Positions 6,880 through 53,474 of a stretch of DNA of 64,000 nt are shown piece after piece (position 1 is the first letter of the stretch; each line of letters opens with the position of its first letter). The notes beneath the pieces were generated by a model. It saw only the letters and a program-made list of their open reading frames with translations. It was not told the DNA's origin and did no database searches. The translations under genes and the position numbers were made by a program. The stretch is taken from assembly GCA_902500205.1 (NCBI GenBank), contig GCA_902500205.1_4868.1; one strand, given 5' to 3'. The DNA is from Escherichia coli. Its GTDB lineage: Bacteria; Pseudomonadota; Gammaproteobacteria; Enterobacterales; Enterobacteriaceae.

Positions 6880-7551
6880 ATGCAGGGCACTGAACTCAAC
6901 AAACTTTGGGAAAAACTGGTTCGTCAATTCCGCGACTTCTATCGATATACCGATAGCGCGCATCGCATGGATCACATCAACTCAGTTAAATCAAATGCGA
7001 TTCGTATCGCGTATATGCTTGGGCAAACCGAACACCTGAAGCTGATACTGATTGCGGTGGCAGCTCACGATATCTTCTCTACCAAAGAAGACCGCGCGTC
7101 ACACCACATCAAAGGGTATAGCTGGATACTGGATAACAAGCCAGTGCTCAAACGTAAGTATAAACTTACCGATGATGAATGTTTGACGATTGCCCATGCA
7201 GTCTTAGAACACCGCAGTTCTCACAAAGGGAACTACAACGGGATTGTCTCTGAGATAGTTGCCGCAGCTGACCGCGGTATACCGTCTGTAGATGACGTGA
7301 GCAATTACATGCACCGTTCTTATCTGTTTGCCCGTGAACAGGGTAAAAGTAAAGGCGATGCAAAATTCCATGCCGTTGGTCACGTCCAACAGAAGTTCGG
7401 ACGCAACGGTATTAGTAATGTCCCTAGTTGGTACGGTACGCTCTTCGCAGAGCGCATTCTGGAACGCAGGGATTTCGTGGAGCAGCTAGATATTAGCTAT
7501 TTCACAGATACCATTATCGACGACCTCGAAGCTCGTCTTTCACACGATTAA
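6880..7551 (+). CDS. putative HD-domain phosphohydrolase
   Basis: H..HD..H..H..D pattern (SAHRMDH, AAHDIFS, HHIKG, AAADRG); conserved leader AAGGAATATTTACATG. Confidence 0.4.
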   Translation: MQGTELNKLWEKLVRQFRDFYRYTDSAHRMDHINSVKSNAIRIAYMLGQTEHLKLILIAVAAHDIFSTKEDRASHHIKGYSWILDNKPVLKRKYKLTDDECLTIAHAVLEHRSSHKGNYNGIVSEIVAAADRGIPSVDDVSNYMHRSYLFAREQGKSKGDAKFHAVGHVQQKFGRNGISNVPSWYGTLFAERILERRDFVEQLDISYFTDTIIDDLEARLSHD

Positions 7552-7577
7552 TCACACTGACCTTAAGGAATATTAAG

Positions 7578-8066
7578 ATGGCTGAAGTAACTTCAATGAA
7601 AGCACTGCACAAACTGATCGCTGAACTGGACACGCCGGCAGCAACCCTGTCCGAAGACCTGGCGCTGAATGCTGAGCCGCTGGTTAAGATTTACGAAGAA
7701 ACACTCCCCGTAACGAAAGTTGGGGATGTGGACTATCGCTTCACACTGGAAGACGCGGACGCTCTGCGACAGCACGACGCAAACTTCACTGAACTGTTCG
7801 GTGGCATTGCCGGTGGTCTGATTGCTGACCGTGCGAAAGCGGATAGCGAAATCGGTGCACTGGACTTAACGCTGGATATCGGTAACGCAGCATTCTCTAC
7901 CGTGTTCTCTCGCCCGGTTACTGAAAACCCAACTCAGAAAGAATGGGCAGCGTCCATCTCTTACGGTTACGGTTCTCCAAAGTCTAAAGCGTTGGAAGGC
8001 AAGCTGCGTAAAGAGTTTGCCAAGTCCATGATGGCAACTGATGAAGAAGACGAAGACGACGAATAA
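7578..8066 (+). CDS. hypothetical protein with acidic C-terminal tail (DEEDEDDE)
   Basis: Conserved leader AAGGAATATTAAGATG; optimal codons. Confidence 0.6.
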   Translation: MAEVTSMKALHKLIAELDTPAATLSEDLALNAEPLVKIYEETLPVTKVGDVDYRFTLEDADALRQHDANFTELFGGIAGGLIADRAKADSEIGALDLTLDIGNAAFSTVFSRPVTENPTQKEWAASISYGYGSPKSKALEGKLRKEFAKSMMATDEEDEDDE

Positions 8067-25623: not shown

Positions 25624-25699
25624 AGGAAAGTGACGCAATTGGTAGCGTACCGGTCTCCAAAACCGGCTGTTTAGAGTTCGAGTCTCTACTTTCCTGCCA
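25624..25699 (+). tRNA. tRNA-Trp (anticodon CCA), 3' CCA encoded
   Basis: Manual cloverleaf: acceptor AGGAAAG/CTTTCCT, D-stem ACGC/GCGT with GG in loop, anticodon stem CCGGT/ACCGG with loop CTCCAAA, T-arm TAGAG-TTCGAGT-CTCTA. Confidence 0.85.
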
Positions 25700-29579: not shown

Positions 29580-29613
29580 GAGGGAACTTCGGTTCCCTCT
29601 TTTTTTCTTTTTT
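29580..29613 (+). terminator. intrinsic terminator
   Basis: Hairpin GAGGGAAC-TTCG-GTTCCCTC plus T-run. Confidence 0.75.
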
Positions 29614-29637
29614 CACGACTGCCTCAGAATCTTATAG
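29610..29637 (+). promoter_or_regulatory. promoter-like motif, class 2 (TTTTCACG..CTTATAG)
   Basis: Near-identical arrangement recurs at 35611..35637, both just after a terminator and 15-25 nt before a start codon. Confidence 0.35.
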
Positions 29638-29649
29638 GAGGAAGTTACC

Positions 29650-30066
29650 ATGATTACGCAGTGCTATTACCAGACGCAAGATTTATTTAAAGCATTGGAA
29701 GAAAATAAGTTACCCACGACTTTAAGACCGCAGTGCAGTTATTCAAGAATGCTTGCAAGTGAGGTCTTTCCGGTGCTAATGCAGTTGCCTCAATTCCAAC
29801 CGTGGCTCGACTCGCTAGATGTGGTAGATGTTGTGGCTATCTACACTGGGTCAGACACACCAACAATAAATACAAGCGAGTGTTTATCCCGTAGCGAATC
29901 GTCGGTGTTAAATGAAATGCCGCAGCTAATGCCTTCTTTATTCGATTCGATGTGCGCTGCAGTTATGCAGAAACGACTACCTTATGAGGAAGTATTCGCC
30001 ATTGTGTTAGACAGCATCCACGCAATGAATTATAAACACTATAAAACCCTCGGAACTTTACACTGA
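29650..30066 (+). CDS. hypothetical protein (138 aa)
   Basis: AGGAGG upstream of ATG. Confidence 0.55.
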   Translation: MITQCYYQTQDLFKALEENKLPTTLRPQCSYSRMLASEVFPVLMQLPQFQPWLDSLDVVDVVAIYTGSDTPTINTSECLSRSESSVLNEMPQLMPSLFDSMCAAVMQKRLPYEEVFAIVLDSIHAMNYKHYKTLGTLH

Positions 30067-30576: not shown

Positions 30577-31389
30577 TTACGACTTGAAGCGTCCACCGTT
30601 CATGTAGTTCCAACGGTTTCCGATGTTGTCGTTGTGGACCAGACAACGTTGCATTTTCGGCAAGGTGTCTTCGAACATTTGACCCGCGTCCGAGTAACCT
30701 TCAATAACGTTTCTGAAGGCACCGAACTCCATACCATTTTCCAGTTTACCGGAGTCCATGTCGAAGATCATGGTGTTGTAGATATATTGCTTAACAGCCA
30801 TAACTGCCAGCTCACCTACAACCGGATAGAAGGCCGGCTTGATTTCGTTCATCTCCTGGGATAGTTCGTACTTCACCACGAGTTTGGTAGAGTAAACGAA
30901 CATGCCTGGGTCTTTGATACGGATGGTATTCGGACCGAGCACTTCAACTTCTGGTGAGGCGATACGCGGCATCGCGGATTGACTATCAACCACTTGCTGG
31001 GTGGATGCTAATACGCCAGAGGTGGCACCGTCCAGATATGAACCTGCGGGAGGCATGGTGTACGCCTGTCCGGCAACGGGTGTTACAGAGATATGGGCGT
31101 CCAGAATTGGGCGACCACCTGTTTTGATGTCGTCGAGATAATACACGCGACTGAAATAATCTTGCGTGTCGTTATCCCAAGGAACACCTTGCAAATCTAC
31201 TTCTTGATACTGCCCCATTCTGGAGATTTCAGGGACCAGAATTTCACGAATAACGCGTTGTTGAATTTCGTTATCTACAGAGCTTGCAATTCCCAGTAAC
31301 TTGAGGTTTTCTGGAACAAAAGCCGCCTGTAGAATCGGGGCAGGGATATGCTGTCTGATTTTACGCAGACAGTAGTCGATAACATTCAT
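30577..31389 (-). CDS. hypothetical protein (start moved to ATG 31389)
   Basis: AGGAG upstream of the minus-strand ATG at 31389; optimal codons. Confidence 0.6.
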   Translation of the reverse strand: MNVIDYCLRKIRQHIPAPILQAAFVPENLKLLGIASSVDNEIQQRVIREILVPEISRMGQYQEVDLQGVPWDNDTQDYFSRVYYLDDIKTGGRPILDAHISVTPVAGQAYTMPPAGSYLDGATSGVLASTQQVVDSQSAMPRIASPEVEVLGPNTIRIKDPGMFVYSTKLVVKYELSQEMNEIKPAFYPVVGELAVMAVKQYIYNTMIFDMDSGKLENGMEFGAFRNVIEGYSDAGQMFEDTLPKMQRCLVHNDNIGNRWNYMNGGRFKS

Positions 31390-31508
31390 TCTAAGGCTCC
31401 TATGAAGCTCGTAGGACAACTCATACCATCGGGTAATGCTATCCCATTACCTGACATTAAAATACGTTTTACGACCTTTATGTGCGCACCATACTCGAAG
31501 AAATTTTG

Positions 31509-31528
31509 CATAGATATTATCTTCGTGA
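31509..31528 (+). promoter_or_regulatory. phage promoter-like motif, class 1 (CATAGATATTATCTTCGTGA)
   Basis: Conserved motif copy upstream of the 31553..35571 gene array. Confidence 0.5.
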
Positions 31529-31552
31529 ATTATCCTTAAGGAGCATTTCTCG

Positions 31553-31873
31553 ATGACGCGCATGTTCTTTAATTTCTCTCCAGGGACAAATGAACAGATT
31601 GTGCCTGCGGACATGTTACTGTGCGCGATACAAGAAGTTATTTATCCCGGCACGCATGAGTTTCCACGTGAGTGGACACGCATTGCCGAAAGTTATTTTG
31701 GCACGGAAGCGTGGTTTGTTATTTCGGCGTTGGGCCGAAACCATCGCTATCCCTTTCATTACAAAAATGGAGTTGTGCAAACGTGGTCAGAATATACCTC
31801 GAACCAGCTGCGGTTCATTCTAGCTTCTGGGGGCCTGTCGATGCTTCCCAGTACGCTACCGCTCTGCGGATGA
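31553..31873 (+). CDS. hypothetical protein (106 aa), first gene of a tightly coupled array
   Basis: Conserved leader TAAGGAGCATTTCTCGATG. Confidence 0.55.
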   Translation: MTRMFFNFSPGTNEQIVPADMLLCAIQEVIYPGTHEFPREWTRIAESYFGTEAWFVISALGRNHRYPFHYKNGVVQTWSEYTSNQLRFILASGGLSMLPSTLPLCG

Positions 31874-32433
31874 GCCAAAAAGAACGCGAGATGTTAACTG
31901 TACAACTGTTACACACTGCGCTCGAAGATATCTTTTACTCCGTTCCGGAAATGCCTAATGCACGTATGGAACCTTTGCTGGAACCTTATACTGACGCTTT
32001 TAATCTCACGATGATGTTGGTGGCTGACCAGATCATACTCCCACCGAAAACAGTTCCTGTGGAACGTACATATGTTTCCAGTGGCGGTTTGGGTGCCCCG
32101 GTTAATAAGACGAAAGAGACCGTAGCGATTTTACGTTCTACCGAATATCTTATCGGATTGGCATTCGAAGACTGTTACAACAGTTTCCTGGACAGTATCC
32201 ATGCACTTGTGGAGAATGCTGTGAAGGCCACCAACCAGCCGTTTAATCGTTATGCGACGATTAAACTGGAACCACACATAACCCATCGTGGGCAGGTGCA
32301 ATCTCTGGAGTTGCAAATTGGAGAAGACATCAGATTCATCCACTACCGCCAGTGCTTCCCAAACAAACGATATCGTCCGTCTGGTACTGATCGATCACAT
32401 CGCCTCGACGGCATACGTCAGGATATTGAATGA
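31870..32433 (+). CDS. hypothetical protein (start moved to ATG 31870, overlapping the upstream stop)
   Basis: ATGA overlap; the track's earlier start would overlap the upstream gene for 200 nt. Confidence 0.5.
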   Translation: MSQKEREMLTVQLLHTALEDIFYSVPEMPNARMEPLLEPYTDAFNLTMMLVADQIILPPKTVPVERTYVSSGGLGAPVNKTKETVAILRSTEYLIGLAFEDCYNSFLDSIHALVENAVKATNQPFNRYATIKLEPHITHRGQVQSLELQIGEDIRFIHYRQCFPNKRYRPSGTDRSHRLDGIRQDIE

Positions 32434-32755
32434 CCCCAGCGACATCATGTTCAGCATGTATGATGTTAATACGGGGTTGAAGCATATCATTCTCTGTATG
32501 CTCGAATACATGATTCCGACATTTACAGAACACGGTACGTGGGACGTAGAAACAGTCTCACTGATTGTTAGGTGCTATCGTCCCAGAAGTCATTCGCGGG
32601 AAATCCACACCATCGCGTCTCACGTTCATCGTGCTATCTGTGAGGAAATGGGCATTCCTCCGAAAGGGTATCGGTATCATTATAATCAAGCAGACAGAAT
32701 TCTCCGTTTCATTCCACGTAAGGTAACAGATGTCTATGATGACGGTTTATACTGA
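32426..32755 (+). CDS. hypothetical protein (start uncertain: TTG 32426 or ATG 32447)
   Basis: Frame of track ORF 32288..32755 trimmed to avoid the upstream gene. Confidence 0.35.
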   Translation: MNDPSDIMFSMYDVNTGLKHIILCMLEYMIPTFTEHGTWDVETVSLIVRCYRPRSHSREIHTIASHVHRAICEEMGIPPKGYRYHYNQADRILRFIPRKVTDVYDDGLY

Positions 32756-33137
32756 GTTCGTGCGATTGACTTGCCGACTCACCGCACTCGTCAAAGAGAA
32801 TCTCGGCATCGATTACCAGGATGCTGCGGTAGAGCTTGACGACTATATCGAGCAAATTGTTCGGTTGCATGTTCTGCGGAAAAAATATGGCGTTATCGAT
32901 AGCATGATACGCCAGTTCTTTATGGAGTATGTTCACGATAACCCAATCATTACTCCAACCACGTCGGCAAAATACTGGGCTCTTTGTCGATTTGAGTTGT
33001 TGATACGGGACACCGATTGCATCTGGCAAGCAATCGACGAGGACATGACTTATTTACCACAATCCGACTTCCTCCTTTGGCATGTAGGAGATGGTGTCTG
33101 GAAAATGTTAACTACAGGGGTTACTTACAATGATTGA
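32730..33137 (+). CDS. hypothetical protein (135 aa)
   Basis: AAGG upstream of ATG. Confidence 0.5.
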   Translation: MSMMTVYTEFVRLTCRLTALVKENLGIDYQDAAVELDDYIEQIVRLHVLRKKYGVIDSMIRQFFMEYVHDNPIITPTTSAKYWALCRFELLIRDTDCIWQAIDEDMTYLPQSDFLLWHVGDGVWKMLTTGVTYND

Positions 33138-33639
33138 GCGATCTCATTTTTATATCCCCGGCTATCAGTTATTGGCTGGGCCGTTAACGGAGTTTTCGCC
33201 AAACGATGTGCTCCGCGAAGTGAATGACGATTTGAACTCGATAATCAATACCGCCATGAGCTTCGTGGAACGTGGAACCATTGGTAGTGAGTTAAAGTTT
33301 ATGATGAACAATACCTTTGGGTTTGTTTCTCGTACACTGAATGCGCACGGCGTTGTGTTGGAAAATGAGCAAGTAATCACTTACGGCACCGCAATTCAAA
33401 ACATCGGTCGTGCGTATATGACCGCCGTATCGCAGTCTCCTTATTGGTTTACTCACTACGGTCGTTGGGTCGGTGCACAATACACAACGCGCAATCCGGC
33501 GGATGTCGAATTCTTATTAGACTATAACGGTGGTGATAAATTCCCACAGTTTGCCAGCCAGGAAGCGTACGAGCGAATCACCCCACAACTTCTGCCTGTT
33601 ATCGATTTGCTTATCGGTAATCTCGGAGGTCGTGTATGA
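33130..33639 (+). CDS. hypothetical protein (169 aa)
   Basis: Overlapping start/stop with neighbours. Confidence 0.55.
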   Translation: MIERSHFYIPGYQLLAGPLTEFSPNDVLREVNDDLNSIINTAMSFVERGTIGSELKFMMNNTFGFVSRTLNAHGVVLENEQVITYGTAIQNIGRAYMTAVSQSPYWFTHYGRWVGAQYTTRNPADVEFLLDYNGGDKFPQFASQEAYERITPQLLPVIDLLIGNLGGRV

Positions 33640-34124
33640 GCGTTCTGTTTGATGTGGCGGATATTGCGAACCAATATAGCGCGACTCGGTTTTACGAGCA
33701 TGTTCGTGAAGCGGCATTGCGTGTACTGGAAGCCAGTAACCTGGAGATTGATGAAACACAGATACGTGATTTTTATCAACGTTTTGCGTTTGCGTATATC
33801 ATCGGTGTGAAAACTCGTGACCCTTCGACGATGGTTGATTTGTTACAGGAAGACACGCTTGAACCTCTGGGCAATTGGGAGTTGGTGTCCGATGGTCTGT
33901 CCGTTGACCAGTTCGCTAAGGAAACGTCTGTCGATACGACGTTTCTGGCAGCACAAGGTTCGCCCGAACAACATCAAGCCGCCTTCGGCGCTGCGGTAAG
34001 TTTGCTGGCCGAAGAGTTAACAAACTTAACTGGTTTTGCTGGGCTGATAGAGTCGCTGTATCCGGGGCGATATCAAACGTATGTGGGTGATAGTTTTAAC
34101 GATGTGGTGTTAATCTGCGAATGA
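33636..34124 (+). CDS. hypothetical protein (162 aa)
   Basis: GGAGG upstream; ATGA overlap. Confidence 0.55.
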   Translation: MSVLFDVADIANQYSATRFYEHVREAALRVLEASNLEIDETQIRDFYQRFAFAYIIGVKTRDPSTMVDLLQEDTLEPLGNWELVSDGLSVDQFAKETSVDTTFLAAQGSPEQHQAAFGAAVSLLAEELTNLTGFAGLIESLYPGRYQTYVGDSFNDVVLICE

Positions 34125-34552
34125 AACTGTACATGACCATAGGCGAAGTCTTCAAATATGAGTCGTTGTTGGCACGGGCCGAGATTGCTGATACTAGCGA
34201 GATCGAGCCCGCTGTCGCTTATTTGTTTCTGGCCAGTTACGCCGAATTAACGGTACGTTCTATTGTTAATGGGCTAGGTAAGGGTAAGAACTTTCTTACT
34301 TTTATTCCCCCAGACCCTGCGTTGATACTGGAACAGTTGCGCGGGATGTGGGGTACTGAAAAGGTGCTGCCTCTAAACTGCTACAGCATGAGCAGTGGGA
34401 TTAAGGATGATGTTCGGTTCTATGAAATCCTTTCCGTGATAGAACGTGTGTGGGGCATGGCTGGCTTGACTCCAGAAGACGGAGCAAAAAAGACAAAGGT
34501 TTCACTCCTTATGAATGAAATTGGCAACGCACTCATCTGTGTTGAATGTTAA
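34121..34552 (+). CDS. hypothetical protein (143 aa)
   Basis: ATGA overlap with upstream gene. Confidence 0.55.
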   Translation: MKLYMTIGEVFKYESLLARAEIADTSEIEPAVAYLFLASYAELTVRSIVNGLGKGKNFLTFIPPDPALILEQLRGMWGTEKVLPLNCYSMSSGIKDDVRFYEILSVIERVWGMAGLTPEDGAKKTKVSLLMNEIGNALICVEC

Positions 34553-34561
34553 GGAGTACGA

Positions 34562-35161
34562 ATGATCTACAAGGTGATCGCCAACCACTTGATTAATGTG
34601 GACTTGGGGGTCGTGGGGTATCTTCCGGACGGTATGCGGTTTTTGGATTTGGTGGTTGACACCGTAGTCCGCCTACCGCGTATCACCGTGGAGATACCCG
34701 TAAAAGAATTGGACCAGGACGAGATACACGAACTTATACGTGAAACGCTGACTAGCTATACGTACGAGTTTCGTTGCATGTTGCCTCGCACCGACCTTAC
34801 GTTCTTGCACGACTTCTTTACGTTACTGACTGACGAGTACCGTCGGTGGAAGTTTAATGTTGCAATGGAAGCCAGCACTGAGTCACATTTTAACGGGCTG
34901 ACACCATTGTTAGATTTAGCGTTGGTGTACAAAGAGCAAGACAGTTCACACTGGGCCACGCTCAAGCACTACACGTTGGATCTAATGGCGACCGCCGTAA
35001 CGGAGGCAGTTATGGCGCATTATGTTGAGCCGGTGAAGATGTTCTTAGAGGCGCATAATGGCGCTATCCGTACGTTGGTTCTCAAGGTGGACTTCCCGAA
35101 AACACCAGTGACCAATGCTTTGGATATGAGGCTGCTTATTGATGTTCCTGAGGAGGAATAA
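34562..35161 (+). CDS. hypothetical protein (199 aa)
   Basis: AAGGAG upstream of ATG. Confidence 0.55.
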   Translation: MIYKVIANHLINVDLGVVGYLPDGMRFLDLVVDTVVRLPRITVEIPVKELDQDEIHELIRETLTSYTYEFRCMLPRTDLTFLHDFFTLLTDEYRRWKFNVAMEASTESHFNGLTPLLDLALVYKEQDSSHWATLKHYTLDLMATAVTEAVMAHYVEPVKMFLEAHNGAIRTLVLKVDFPKTPVTNALDMRLLIDVPEEE

Positions 35162-35571
35162 TGTTCGATTTACGCACACTGGTCGCTGGGCAAAAAGTTA
35201 ACATTGTTTACGACACCCCTTTGAAAGGGCAAGAGACGCGTGTAATTATTCTGGCAACCGGCGTTGGCTATGAAATGGCCAAAAGCTATATGGATGTGAT
35301 GGCGGAGCAGAAGAATATCTACTCATCCATCGTCTCTCAGCCAGAAGATAACGTGAACAAATACACGTATCTGATTTTCAAAGGTGTTGACGGCAAACCA
35401 AAAGTCGCTGCCGATGCCTGGATTCGTGATGTTCAGATTATCGAAAACACGAAGGTGCGCTTCACCGTCACCCTGGATAACAAACAGGAGATTGACGACC
35501 TTAAACGCGCCCTGGCTGCCAATGGTTTCAATGATGTCGATTTTGAAATCGTTGAGAGCATTGCCGGTTAA
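35161..35571 (+). CDS. hypothetical protein (136 aa), last gene of the array
   Basis: AGGAGG upstream; terminator downstream. Confidence 0.55.
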   Translation: MFDLRTLVAGQKVNIVYDTPLKGQETRVIILATGVGYEMAKSYMDVMAEQKNIYSSIVSQPEDNVNKYTYLIFKGVDGKPKVAADAWIRDVQIIENTKVRFTVTLDNKQEIDDLKRALAANGFNDVDFEIVESIAG

Positions 35572-35577
35572 AGTAAT

Positions 35578-35615
35578 CCCACTCTTCGGAGTGGGTTATT
35601 TTTTTTTCTTTTTTC
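35578..35615 (+). terminator. intrinsic terminator
   Basis: Hairpin CCCACTC-TTCG-GAGTGGG plus long T-run. Confidence 0.75.
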
Positions 35616-35637
35616 ACGTATCCCGCAAGTCTTATAG
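35611..35637 (+). promoter_or_regulatory. promoter-like motif, class 2 (TTTTCACG..CTTATAG)
   Basis: Second copy of the motif seen at 29610..29637. Confidence 0.35.
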
Positions 35638-35662
35638 CTGAGTAAAAACCAAGGGGCCAGAC

Positions 35663-37942
35663 GTGGACTACAATTCACCATTTCGTCTTAGTCAAGACGA
35701 GTATCATCGCGACATTGACGTTATCGATGCGTACTACGAACAACTGGCGCTCTACATTCATACCGTCACCAACGGGAAATATTCTTTGGAGTTCTGTCGA
35801 CAGCAGGTCGAAGAAATGTTCCAACCTGGTGGTGAGTTAGTACACGAATTCCCCGTGTGTAAGATGTGGGTGCGCAATCAAAAGACCGGCGATCGCGAAG
35901 AAAAATACACCACGGTAGATAAACTGTTCCGTACAGTGATTGATAAGCAGATCATTTCTGCACCGTCGTTGACTTTCTATTTGCCGGAACACGTAAAGCG
36001 TTCTAAGCTTGCCGAATTTACCGCAGAGAACGTGCGTAAGCGTGCGGTGGTTAAGAAAGAGATGTATGCGGCCGGTGCTGCAGGCAACGAAGTTTTACGT
36101 ATTAACAAAAAGAACGAACAGAACGCTGTTAAAACGCTGAACAACGGGATGTCTGGTGCATTCTCATCACCGTACACGGTAATCTTTAACCAGTCTTCGC
36201 ACTCTGTATTGACGTCAACCTGCCGTACGGCTACATCGTTCGGTAACGCGGGCAACGAACGTCTACTGGGCGGTAATCGTCACTACGACACGCCGTCCCG
36301 TGTTATCGACCACTTACTGTCTATTGGTACACTGACTAACTTTGCGGAGTTCAAGAAGTGTATGGAACTCTATAACCTCCACTACCCAACAGTGGACGAG
36401 GTTATGGAAGTGGTTATGTACTCTGCAGAGTTTTACTTCCGTAACGACGAAGGGCTGGAGTTCATTCGTCACTACGTCGGTAATTGTAGCCCGCTGGTAC
36501 GTGCAGCGTTTGTCTACATGGGTGACTTCTACCACCTGGCGAAATACAACGATGAATTCATGCGCGGATTTATCGGTGCGCTGATTGCCGAGGAGATGGA
36601 AGACGAGATCACCGATTGGGATGCTGCTGAGCGCTCTATCGACGGTGACATGCAGATCATTATCTCGCAGTTCCGTACTGATATCGTGCCGTTAGGTAAG
36701 TCGTTCTCTGACGTTAAACTCAAAGACGAAAACACGAACAAAGCGGAACCGTGGGATAAGCAGGAAAAATACAAAGAGCTGATTCGCTCAGCTGTGTATC
36801 TGCAGAAAACCATCGGTAAGTACGCGTGCTTGATTCGTAATATCCTGACCACCAAAAACCTGCCAATCAACATTGCCAGGATGCCTGATGTGGTTCGTCG
36901 TGTTGGCGTGGTGTCTGATACCGACTCCACGATGATGACTGCACAGTGGTGGGCGCAGTGGTATACCGGTCAACATTACGGTCGTGAAGCTACGCGCGTA
37001 TCGGATGCGATGATTTATATCGCAACCCAGCACTTACGTCATCTGATGGCGAGTATGTCGGCGAATATCGGTGTGGCGAAAGAGCGTCTGTTTTTGTACG
37101 CAATGAAGAACGAATTTAAGTTCGACTCCTTTGCGTTAACCACGAAAGCAAAACACTATTTCTCCATCATCACTGGCCAGGAAGGGCAGTTGAAGTCTGA
37201 CCCTGAGTTAGAAGTTAAGGGCGTGTCTTTACGTACGTCGAACATTCCTCCGGTGGTCATGAAAGAGTTCAAACGCACGATCAAAGAACTCTGTGAGATC
37301 GTGGCACGTGGTGACAAGATTAAGATTCTGCCTCTGCTGGAAAAGGTTGCTGCAATTGAGCACGTTGTGGTGGACTCTATTCGTGCTGGTAAAGCAGGCT
37401 ACCTGAAAACAACCAACGTCAAAGACCGTAGTGCGTACTCTGAAGATGATGAAAAGAGTTACCACTACCACCGCATGTACAACGCTATCTTTGGACCGAA
37501 GTACGGCTACCTGGACGAACCGCCTTATGACGCCGTGAAGCTTCCGGTAAACCTGGAGAACAAAACAGCCGTTAAAGAGTGGCTGGAAAACATTAAAGAC
37601 CCGATGATTAAGACCACCGCAACACGGTGGTTCGAAGAAAACAACTATCGTACCTATCGTACTCTGATACTGCCAGAGTTCCTGGTGGAAAACTTCGGTA
37701 TTCCGCCGGAGCTGATTGATGCTGCAGACACACGTCGAAGCGCATTCTCCACAGTAGAACCTTACTATCACATTCTGGAATGTCTGGGTGTGTTCATGAT
37801 GGACAAGAATAGAACTCGTCTGCTTTCGGATTACTACGGTGAGTCTGTAGATTCCGTCAAGGAAGAATTAGGTAGTGGTGAGTACGTTAAGAAATCTGAA
37901 CGTGATGGAGAGGAAGAAGATGGGGAAGAAGCGGAGGAGTAA
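35663..37942 (+). CDS. large protein with family-B DNA polymerase-like motifs (putative polymerase catalytic subunit); GTG start
   Basis: KTLNNGMSGAF resembles PolB motif B (K...NS.YG) and VGVVSDTDS resembles motif C (YGDTDS); no exonuclease motifs seen and motif spacing is atypical. Confidence 0.35.
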   Translation: MDYNSPFRLSQDEYHRDIDVIDAYYEQLALYIHTVTNGKYSLEFCRQQVEEMFQPGGELVHEFPVCKMWVRNQKTGDREEKYTTVDKLFRTVIDKQIISAPSLTFYLPEHVKRSKLAEFTAENVRKRAVVKKEMYAAGAAGNEVLRINKKNEQNAVKTLNNGMSGAFSSPYTVIFNQSSHSVLTSTCRTATSFGNAGNERLLGGNRHYDTPSRVIDHLLSIGTLTNFAEFKKCMELYNLHYPTVDEVMEVVMYSAEFYFRNDEGLEFIRHYVGNCSPLVRAAFVYMGDFYHLAKYNDEFMRGFIGALIAEEMEDEITDWDAAERSIDGDMQIIISQFRTDIVPLGKSFSDVKLKDENTNKAEPWDKQEKYKELIRSAVYLQKTIGKYACLIRNILTTKNLPINIARMPDVVRRVGVVSDTDSTMMTAQWWAQWYTGQHYGREATRVSDAMIYIATQHLRHLMASMSANIGVAKERLFLYAMKNEFKFDSFALTTKAKHYFSIITGQEGQLKSDPELEVKGVSLRTSNIPPVVMKEFKRTIKELCEIVARGDKIKILPLLEKVAAIEHVVVDSIRAGKAGYLKTTNVKDRSAYSEDDEKSYHYHRMYNAIFGPKYGYLDEPPYDAVKLPVNLENKTAVKEWLENIKDPMIKTTATRWFEENNYRTYRTLILPEFLVENFGIPPELIDAADTRRSAFSTVEPYYHILECLGVFMMDKNRTRLLSDYYGESVDSVKEELGSGEYVKKSERDGEEEDGEEAEE

Positions 37943-39831: not shown

Positions 39832-39849
39832 CAGATATTATCTCTGCGA
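39832..39849 (+). promoter_or_regulatory. phage promoter-like motif, class 1 (CAGATATTATCTCTGCGA)
   Basis: Second tandem copy, about 40 nt upstream of ATG 39890. Confidence 0.45.
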
Positions 39850-53450: not shown

Positions 53451-53474
53451 CAGATAGATATTATCTTACCGAGG
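53451..53474 (+). promoter_or_regulatory. phage promoter-like motif, class 1 (CAGATAGATATTATCTTACCGAGG)
   Basis: Conserved motif copy about 25 nt upstream of the RNAP beta gene start. Confidence 0.5.

Follow-up and report, generated by a model that had tools for sequence, protein, structure and literature searches.

A conserved array of nine small genes in front of the DNA polymerase gene of an SPN3US-like jumbo phage: a probable single transcription unit that ends in a baseplate gene

Results

Nine small genes form a probable transcription unit

The DNA studied here is a stretch of 64,000 nucleotides (nt) from an Escherichia coli assembly (NCBI GenBank GCA_902500205.1, contig GCA_902500205.1_4868.1), which is called the window throughout, and the element in question is an array of nine small genes (g1 to g9) that occupies positions 31553 to 35571 and is followed by a DNA polymerase gene. 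The 4.3 kb around the array was found to match Salmonella phage SPN3US, Escherichia phage EC001 and about 20 other Seoulvirus genomes, each of roughly 240 kb, over its full length with 97.6-99.1% identity. On the basis of its sequence the window is assigned to an SPN3US-like Seoulvirus, a nucleus-forming jumbo phage of the Chimalliviridae. In the numbering of SPN3US, g1 to g9 are gp9 to gp17; the published Seoulvirus annotation presents the array as 8-11 hypothetical proteins, followed by the DNA polymerase. A preliminary description of the window had reported nine consecutive small open reading frames (ORFs) behind one promoter motif and before one terminator. This arrangement was confirmed and proved to be conserved across at least five phage genera. 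It is highly probable that the nine genes of this SPN3US-like chimallivirus are transcribed together as one conserved unit and that the product of the last of them is a baseplate protein. The features of the locus are collected in Table 1.

The genes had also been called tightly overlapped, which is essentially right, as 5-7 of the 8 junctions overlap. The pairs g5/g6 and g6/g7 each share 4 nt (ATGA), g4 and g5 overlap by 8 nt, g3 and g4 by 17-26 nt, and g8 and g9 by 1 nt (TAATG); g7 and g8 are separated by 9 nt. The g1/g2 junction is an overlap of 4 nt (ATGA) if g2 starts at the ATG at 31870 and of 91 nt if it starts at the GTG at 31783. Between g2 and g3 there is a gap of 13-22 nt or an overlap, according to the start of g3, for which TTG 32318, TTG 32426, ATG 32447 and ATG 32456 are candidates; members of the g3 family are about 23 residues longer at the N-terminus. 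Because each start lies inside the preceding gene or close behind it, translational coupling across the array is likely. The GTG at 31783 is probably the start of g2, which gives a protein of 216 amino acids. This longer version is favoured because about 30 further residues at the N-terminus are conserved among the homologues of g2 and align with the upstream frame in the window, because most of the 24 representatives of this narrow family returned by a hidden Markov model (HMM) search of the whole library start about 30 residues ahead of the profile, and because the AlphaFold model of the extension is confident, with a predicted local distance difference test (pLDDT) score of 87-94.

Table 1. 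Positions of the genes and sequence signals of the array and its surroundings in the window
Feature	Position	Strand	Remarks
g1 (gp9)	31553..31873	+	106 amino acids; orphan family phrog_9874
g2 (gp10)	31783..32433	+	216 amino acids from GTG 31783; 187 amino acids if ATG 31870
g3 (gp11)	32447..32755	+	about 102 amino acids; start uncertain
g4 (gp12)	32730..33137	+	132-135 amino acids; acidic
g5 (gp13)	33130..33639	+	169 amino acids
g6 (gp14)	33636..34124	+	162 amino acids; very acidic
g7 (gp15)	34121..34552	+	143 amino acids
g8 (gp16)	34562..35161	+	199 amino acids; acidic
g9 (gp17)	35161..35571	+	136 amino acids; Pfam SH3DP; phiKZ gp49 orthologue
Presumptive promoter core AGATATTATCT ('class 1' of the preliminary description)	31512-31522	+	31 nt ahead of the g1 ATG
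Ribosome-binding site AAGGAG of g1	31538..31543	+	9 nt ahead of the ATG; read from the sequence
Intrinsic terminator	35578..35616	+	stem CCCACTC-TTCG-GAGTGGG, then T-run
Second promoter-like motif TTCACG-N13-TTATAG	35613..35637	+	ahead of the DNA polymerase gene
g0 (SPN3US gp8)	30577..31419	-	divergent left neighbour; left border of the slot
DNA polymerase (SPN3US gp18; phiKZ gp50 homologue)	35663..37942	+	right neighbour, outside the operon

When the nine genes were compared with those of SPN3US, the ratio of non-synonymous to synonymous differences (pN/pS) was 0-0.30. Against the 75%-identical pEa_SNUABM_29 the ratio of the non-synonymous to the synonymous substitution rate (dN/dS) was at most about 0.26, with dS saturated. 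Each of the nine has a PHROG family, and all nine are genuine genes under purifying selection. Paralogy among g1-g9 was also considered and was rejected, as BLAST gave no cross-matches and hhalign at most 2% between the families of the window.

The promoter motif in front of g1 reads, with its flanks, CATAGATATTATCTTCGTGA (31509-31528), and GTGA follows the core. It belongs to the common intergenic motif of the window, (A)GATAGATATTA(T/C)CT, which is often followed by nnGTGA. The core AGATATTAYCT had 15 matches with at most one mismatch in the window vs 1.4 expected; no shuffle out of 100 attained 15 matches. Exact copies of the core are present on the plus strand at 31512, 28548, 39833, 48297, 49713 and 53456. 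The copy at 39833 precedes the gene of a 617-amino-acid protein, which has been identified as the SPN3US chimallin, ACQ60_gp244 (Laughlin 2022), and the copy at 53456 precedes an RNA polymerase beta gene. The motif is kept ahead of the g1 orthologues in Erskinevirus, Machinavirus, Wellingtonvirus, Derbicusvirus and metagenomic relatives. A search for sigma-70 promoters yielded 7 vs 9 expected, that is, no signal. The early promoters that the virion RNA polymerase of jumbo phages uses have been described as conserved AT-rich motifs upstream of operons (PMC7598289). Because it follows this rule, AGATATTAYCT is presumptively such a virion-RNA-polymerase early promoter. Its core (AGATA-T-TATCT) is a near-perfect palindrome, and the copy at 31512 lies in the divergent region between g1 and its left neighbour g0. 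The flanks of the core are strand-specific, with GATAG upstream and nnGTGA downstream, and this suggests that the promoter at 31512 fires towards g1.

At the other end of the array, the stem of the strong intrinsic terminator consists of 7 GC-rich base pairs (35578-35595), begins 7 nt past the g9 stop and is followed by a long T-run. A hairpin followed by a T-run was present after the g9 orthologues in all genera checked (Erskine-, Machina-, Wellington- and Derbicusvirus, and metagenomic relatives).

The last gene of the array encodes a baseplate protein

According to the preliminary description none of the nine products has recognisable motifs. This does not hold for g9, which matches the Pfam family PF20287 (SH3DP) over residues 8-124 with 120.9 bits (cutoff 25, E=3.2e-35). 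Besides, a profile made of the g9 orthologues matches the PDB chain 9xqs_M, 'PHIKZ049'. In phiKZ, gp49 forms the hexagonal ring HR1 of the inner baseplate, in which 12 dimers are joined by 'handshake' beta-sheets, as seen by cryo-electron microscopy (cryo-EM) (PMC13250141). The g9 protein is 100% identical to SPN3US gp17, for which 21, 19 and 21 spectra were recorded in purified virions and none in the tailless am27 sup- particles (Thomas 2016, Table S4). By homology g9 is a conserved structural protein of the inner ring (HR1) of the baseplate, orthologous to phiKZ gp49. A function in host takeover or anti-defence, which had been put forward for all nine genes, falls with this for g9. Homology to conserved structural proteins had been named as the finding that would speak against such a function, and it was obtained for g9 (phiKZ gp49); no homology of this kind was obtained for g1-g8 in Pfam, NCBIfam and PDB, and for these eight the proposal is possible but gained no positive support.

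In SPN3US, phiEaH2, Machina, Kwan, pVa-21 and phiKZ alike, g9 or its homologue closes the array and the DNA polymerase gene comes next; in Cronobacter phage CR5 two genes lie between them. PF20287 bears the name 'SH3 fold domain associated with phage DNA polymerases'. A possible role of the SH3DP protein as a polymerase subunit was proposed from gene neighbourhood alone (Iyer 2021), and an antisense oligonucleotide (ASO) screen of phiKZ, in which the knock-down of 049 strongly reduced plaquing, uses the label 'DNA polymerase interactor', citing only Iyer. The view of g9 as a subunit of the DNA polymerase was rejected, because the neighbourhood argument behind it (Iyer 2021 and the ASO paper) is superseded by the cryo-EM and the mass spectrometry of virions. 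The name of PF20287 reflects the neighbourhood only and misleads on function, and the annotation of this 'DNA-polymerase-associated SH3' family of Pfam is to be corrected to baseplate protein.

The array occupies a slot with clade-specific content

Loci were gathered with the DNA polymerase as the anchor (79 IMG/VR loci and, in addition, GenBank loci), and orthologues were sought by iterated HMM searches. Homologues of g9 were detected in 83 loci and those of g0 in 68. Between the g0 and g9 homologues, 7-13 small ORFs on the g9 strand, spanning 3.7-6.8 kb, were present in 68/68 chimallivirus loci. This place is referred to as the gp42-gp49 slot, after the phiKZ homologues of its two borders. 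Clustering showed that the gene families in the slot are clade-specific. A complete and colinear set of g1-g8, followed by g9, was present in about 27 loci, with polymerases at least 69% identical, from five genera; the phages that keep this order infect Salmonella, Escherichia, Erwinia, Cronobacter and Proteus. The eight genes are limited to the SPN3US/Erskine/Machina/Wellington/Derbicus clade, the Erwinia phages included, and their surroundings are a core gene block rather than a variable accessory island. The pVa-21-like clade is reached by two of them only, g5 by BLAST and g2 by HMM and hhalign (94%), both at colinear positions, and g5 is the most widely sequence-detectable of the eight. 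A link of g7 to 'intermediate' phages had to be discarded, as it was really a divergent Derbicusvirus g7 from inside the close clade.

Only two of the slot genes have been characterized experimentally, both of them in phiKZ. For its entry into the nucleus the RecA-like gp152 needs Imp2, the product of orf47, which itself is imported and localizes to the nucleus; Imp4, the product of orf48, is needed together with Imp5 for the import of the host TopA, as was found by genetic selection; both were reported to lack conservation beyond the phiKZ-like phages of Pseudomonas (10.1101/2024.03.27.586873). The clusters obtained here likewise confine the two to a few 'far' loci. Imp2 and Imp4 are both absent from the phiKZ virion atlas (PMC13250141).

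The slot of the phiKZ-like phages has features of its own. In the phiKZ record NC_004629 an unannotated ORF of 142 amino acids is found at about 35899-36327, between PHIKZ042 and PHIKZ043. It recurs as the opening gene of the slot in 11 phiKZ-like loci (cluster c13) and is probably a real gene that the RefSeq annotation omits. The phiKZ-like clade possesses, towards the gp49 end of the slot, a superfamily of proteins of about 125-150 amino acids (clusters c2, c11, c37, c38 and c32; hhalign up to 98%), which hhalign found to be unrelated to Imp4. This superfamily is often represented by two copies per locus, which indicates local duplication inside the slot.

Properties of the first eight proteins

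None of g1-g8 is present in the SPN3US virion proteome of 83 proteins (Thomas 2016, Table S4). The eight proteins are soluble and have no transmembrane segments. Seven of them have an isoelectric point of 4.2-6.3 and g3 one of 7.05, and the net charge amounts to about -17 for g6 and -13 for g8. Searches of Pfam, NCBIfam and PDB with g1-g8 gave no match, PHROGs returned small families of unknown function only, and a concatenated g1-g8 query had no match in a collection of 5.8 billion proteins. The eight genes diverge faster than their neighbours, dN against pEa_SNUABM_29 being 0.13-0.34 for g1-g8 vs 0.05-0.09. In the comparison with CR5, g1-g8 are 21-36% identical where detectable, and g9 and g0 46-53%. 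In the literature, no published mention of PHIKZ043-048 by locus tag was found, and Enustun 2023 and the 2025 Annual Review are silent on g1-g8 and the slot genes.

The structures of g2 and g8 were predicted with AlphaFold from shallow alignments (9 and 11 sequences), the underlying searches having yielded 14-15 relatives each. The model of g8 (pLDDT 81, predicted template modelling score, pTM, 0.75) has an alpha/beta fold, and the alignment of the family contains the conserved motif DEYRRWKF. For g2 (pLDDT 81, pTM 0.71) a winged-helix-like core with beta-hairpins was predicted, and the conserved motif is GEDIRFxxY. The fold search that the preliminary description had advised was carried out with these two models; it returned for g8 its own orthologues only, in BFVD, and for g2 proteins of other chimalliviruses with a Foldseek probability of about 1.0. 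Among the latter are pVa21_200 and Eowyn gp075, both encoded close to where their own slot arrays begin. A weak fold match (probability 0.75, E=0.048, template modelling (TM) score 0.30-0.34) was obtained with a slot protein of PS119XW, which is a homologue of phiKZ gp47 (Imp2) by BLAST (E=6e-17).

The motif G-[ED]-D-[YI]-R-[IF]-x-x-[YW] is common to g2, Eowyn gp075 and the phiKZ gp43 family. It was present in 27 of the 577 slot ORFs vs none of the 6974 other ORFs of the same loci. In profile comparisons, g2 reached its homologues of the pVa-21 clade (c21) with 94%, and c21 reached the gp43 family with 58% (E=1e-4); the direct comparison of g2 with the gp43 family gave 5.5%, which is not significant. 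Probably, g2 is a distant counterpart of phiKZ gp43.

Flanking genes and further signals

The left neighbour of the array, g0, matches the Pfam family DUF7484 (E=1.4e-96). It is 28% identical to PHIKZ042 (E=5.5e-29) and also matches PHIKZ042 in the PDB entry 9xpe (E=3.5e-25). The phiKZ gp42 is the dodecameric portal adaptor (PMC13250141), and SPN3US gp8 was found in virions, tailless heads included (Thomas 2016, Table S4). By homology to phiKZ gp42, g0 is identified as the portal adaptor.

The motif TTCACG-N13/14-TTATAG is represented by two matches in the window vs 0.02 expected, one to the right of the array at 35613-35637 and one at 29612-29637. Both copies are located directly after T-rich terminators; the second of them precedes a 138-amino-acid gene at 29650. 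Upstream of the polymerase gene the motif is kept in relatives of several genera, and it may represent a middle or late promoter class. Because it has this promoter-like motif of its own after the terminator, the DNA polymerase gene is probably a separate transcription unit. In CR5 (Derbicusvirus) the two extra genes, which are small, follow the g9 terminator and precede the DNA polymerase gene (6928-7857 of its locus), and the motif is not present directly after the terminator.

Over the region from g0 to the polymerase gene (30577-37942) the synonymous divergence from SPN3US is patchy, with a pS of 0.13-0.20 in g0, g5, g8 and g9 vs 0.02-0.06 in g1-g4, g6, g7 and the polymerase gene. Such a pattern is suggestive of mosaic recombination between strains of Seoulvirus. 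Elsewhere in the window, a gene for tRNA-Trp (CCA) is situated at 25624-25699, in a gene-poor stretch of about 25.5-27.5 kb. Further intergenic sequences of this stretch end in tRNA-like 3' arms, none of which was called by ARAGORN.

Discussion

Of the factors that select proteins for entry into the nucleus of these phages we know only a handful, all of them from Pseudomonas phages. Judged by their position, g1-g8 would serve nucleus-based replication within the infected cell, as lineage-specific accessory or adaptor proteins. The role thought most likely would be that of cargo-specific helpers that bring replication and recombination proteins into the phage nucleus, as Imp2 and Imp4 do for their cargos; in a less likely version, g1-g8 would be nuclear partners of the replication or recombination proteins. 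That they are nuclear-import adaptors is put forward here as a tentative analogy, because Imp2 and Imp4 are the only functional precedent in the slot, and a positional one. Such a role would fit the absence of g1-g8 from virions, the chimallin-type promoter, their clade-restricted but strictly colinear occurrence, and fast divergence under purifying selection.

A number of points weigh against import adaptors. The link to import consists of genomic position and the one weak fold match of g2. Comparison of the g1-g8 families with phiKZ gp42.1, 43, 44, 45, 46, 47 and 48 by hhalign gave a probability of 3.2% at most, with Imp4 against its PhiPA3/201phi2-1 cluster (90%) as the positive control, and homology of g1-g8 to phiKZ gp43-48 at the sequence level was ruled out, the weak motif link between g2 and gp43 excepted. 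The fold of g8 found only its own orthologues in BFVD and no match among the phiKZ proteins. The last gene of the operon is structural and its left neighbour encodes the portal adaptor, which leaves room for an assembly-chaperone role for some of g1-g8. An 'early' promoter is unexpected before a baseplate gene, and the time of expression is itself deduced from a motif. Finally, Imp2 tolerates nonsense mutations in phiKZ (10.1101/2024.03.27.586873), so that slot genes need not be essential.

The preliminary description had favoured host takeover or anti-defence, in which case g1-g8 would be early inhibitors of host defence or would redirect host machinery, the acidic ones for instance as DNA mimics. 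This is rather unlikely. A presumptive early promoter like that of chimallin would suit such a cassette, as would small, soluble and acidic proteins (with g6 at -17 and g8 at -13 the extremes) that are not part of the virion, have no known domains and diverge faster than their neighbours. Counter-defence islands, however, are typically variable between close relatives, whereas all eight genes are in a fixed order across the phages of Salmonella, Escherichia, Proteus, Erwinia and Cronobacter, and the array is embedded in the core gene block without presence/absence variation in the approximately 27 loci. Moreover, the pN/pS values (0-0.3) give no sign of positive selection, g9 is structural and the characterized phiKZ slot genes are import factors. 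Homology of g1-g8 to known inhibitors or takeover proteins was not found in Pfam, NCBIfam, PDB and PHROGs; no dedicated anti-defence library was searched. Proximity to the polymerase gene, which the array directly precedes in all loci, could instead point to a replication accessory module, with g1-g8 as lineage-specific replisome, origin or recombination factors that compensate for the missing classical sliding clamp and loader. These phages indeed lack a classical clamp (Iyer 2021), and g2 gives a weak winged-helix hint. The module is nevertheless quite improbable: with its own promoter-like motif after the terminator the polymerase gene would not be co-transcribed with the array, adjacency is a poor guide where the polymerase-linked SH3 gene has proved to encode a baseplate protein, and g2 is acidic overall.

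Somewhat less probable again is that g1-g8 are helpers of morphogenesis, i.e. that they assist the assembly of the baseplate, tail or neck as chaperones or scaffolds that are not part of the virion, and are co-expressed with g9. The presence of a baseplate HR1 protein (g9) and a portal adaptor (g0) at the two borders argues for it; the tight translational coupling, including the TAATG of g8/g9, is typical of assembly modules, and absence from mature virions is what is expected of chaperones. Yet the type of promoter that heads the array precedes the chimallin and RNA polymerase beta genes and not the large structural genes of the window, the phiKZ slot genes for Imp2 and Imp4 act in nuclear import, with Imp2 being nuclear, and g1-g8 are confined to a clade, unlike baseplate proteins, which the whole family keeps. 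The remaining probability belongs to something else altogether.

If the import-adaptor reading is extended to the whole family, the gp42-gp49 slot would be an 'adaptor cassette' of the Chimalliviridae, in which each lineage has its own non-homologous set of proteins that license cargos such as UvsX/RecA or the host TopA. In that case up to eight new factors for import specificity, without sequence kinship to Imp2 and Imp4, would be found in gp9-gp16, and g2/gp43 would be the sole ancient member. This generalization is speculative and is considered unlikely. Should the positional argument hold, SPN3US, a genetically tractable Salmonella phage for which amber-mutant tools exist, would supply eight candidate lineage-specific import adaptors, and a genomic rule would follow for the import factors of any chimallivirus, namely to look between the gp42 and gp49 homologues. 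Should it fail, the array is an ordinary conserved operon of hypothetical proteins. The genes of the array were already known as hypothetical proteins in dozens of genomes, and the g9 family had been solved structurally. New are the family-wide slot with its clade-specific content, its positional link to Imp2 and Imp4, the probable kinship of g2 and gp43 and two corrections of annotation, one to the function given to the SH3DP family and one to the start of g2.

Comparison with known systems

With Imp2 and Imp4, the g1-g8 proteins have in common the slot and the strand, a similar small size, the absence from the virion and the restriction to one chimallivirus clade. They differ in that no profile homology connects the two groups and that the sole fold match, of g2, is weak (probability 0.75, TM about 0.3). 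The relation of g2 to the phiKZ gp43 family is of another kind, as both are the second gene of their array and share the motif W..W[DE]V...G.D[YI]R[IF]..[YW], which is confined to slot ORFs; the gp43 proteins are larger, however, with about 340-360 amino acids compared with 216 for g2.

The presumptive promoter resembles the early promoters of the virion RNA polymerases of jumbo phages in being an over-represented AT-rich motif of about 10 nt that is found about 30-60 nt upstream of the starts of operons, that of chimallin included, and is conserved across genera. It differs from them in that it is clade-specific and nearly palindromic and heads an operon that ends in a baseplate gene. As to that last gene, the pairwise identity between g9 and phiKZ gp49 is only about 18-22%, and the architecture of the ring is known from phiKZ; what the two proteins share is the match to PF20287 and the place of their genes after an array of small genes and before the DNA polymerase gene.

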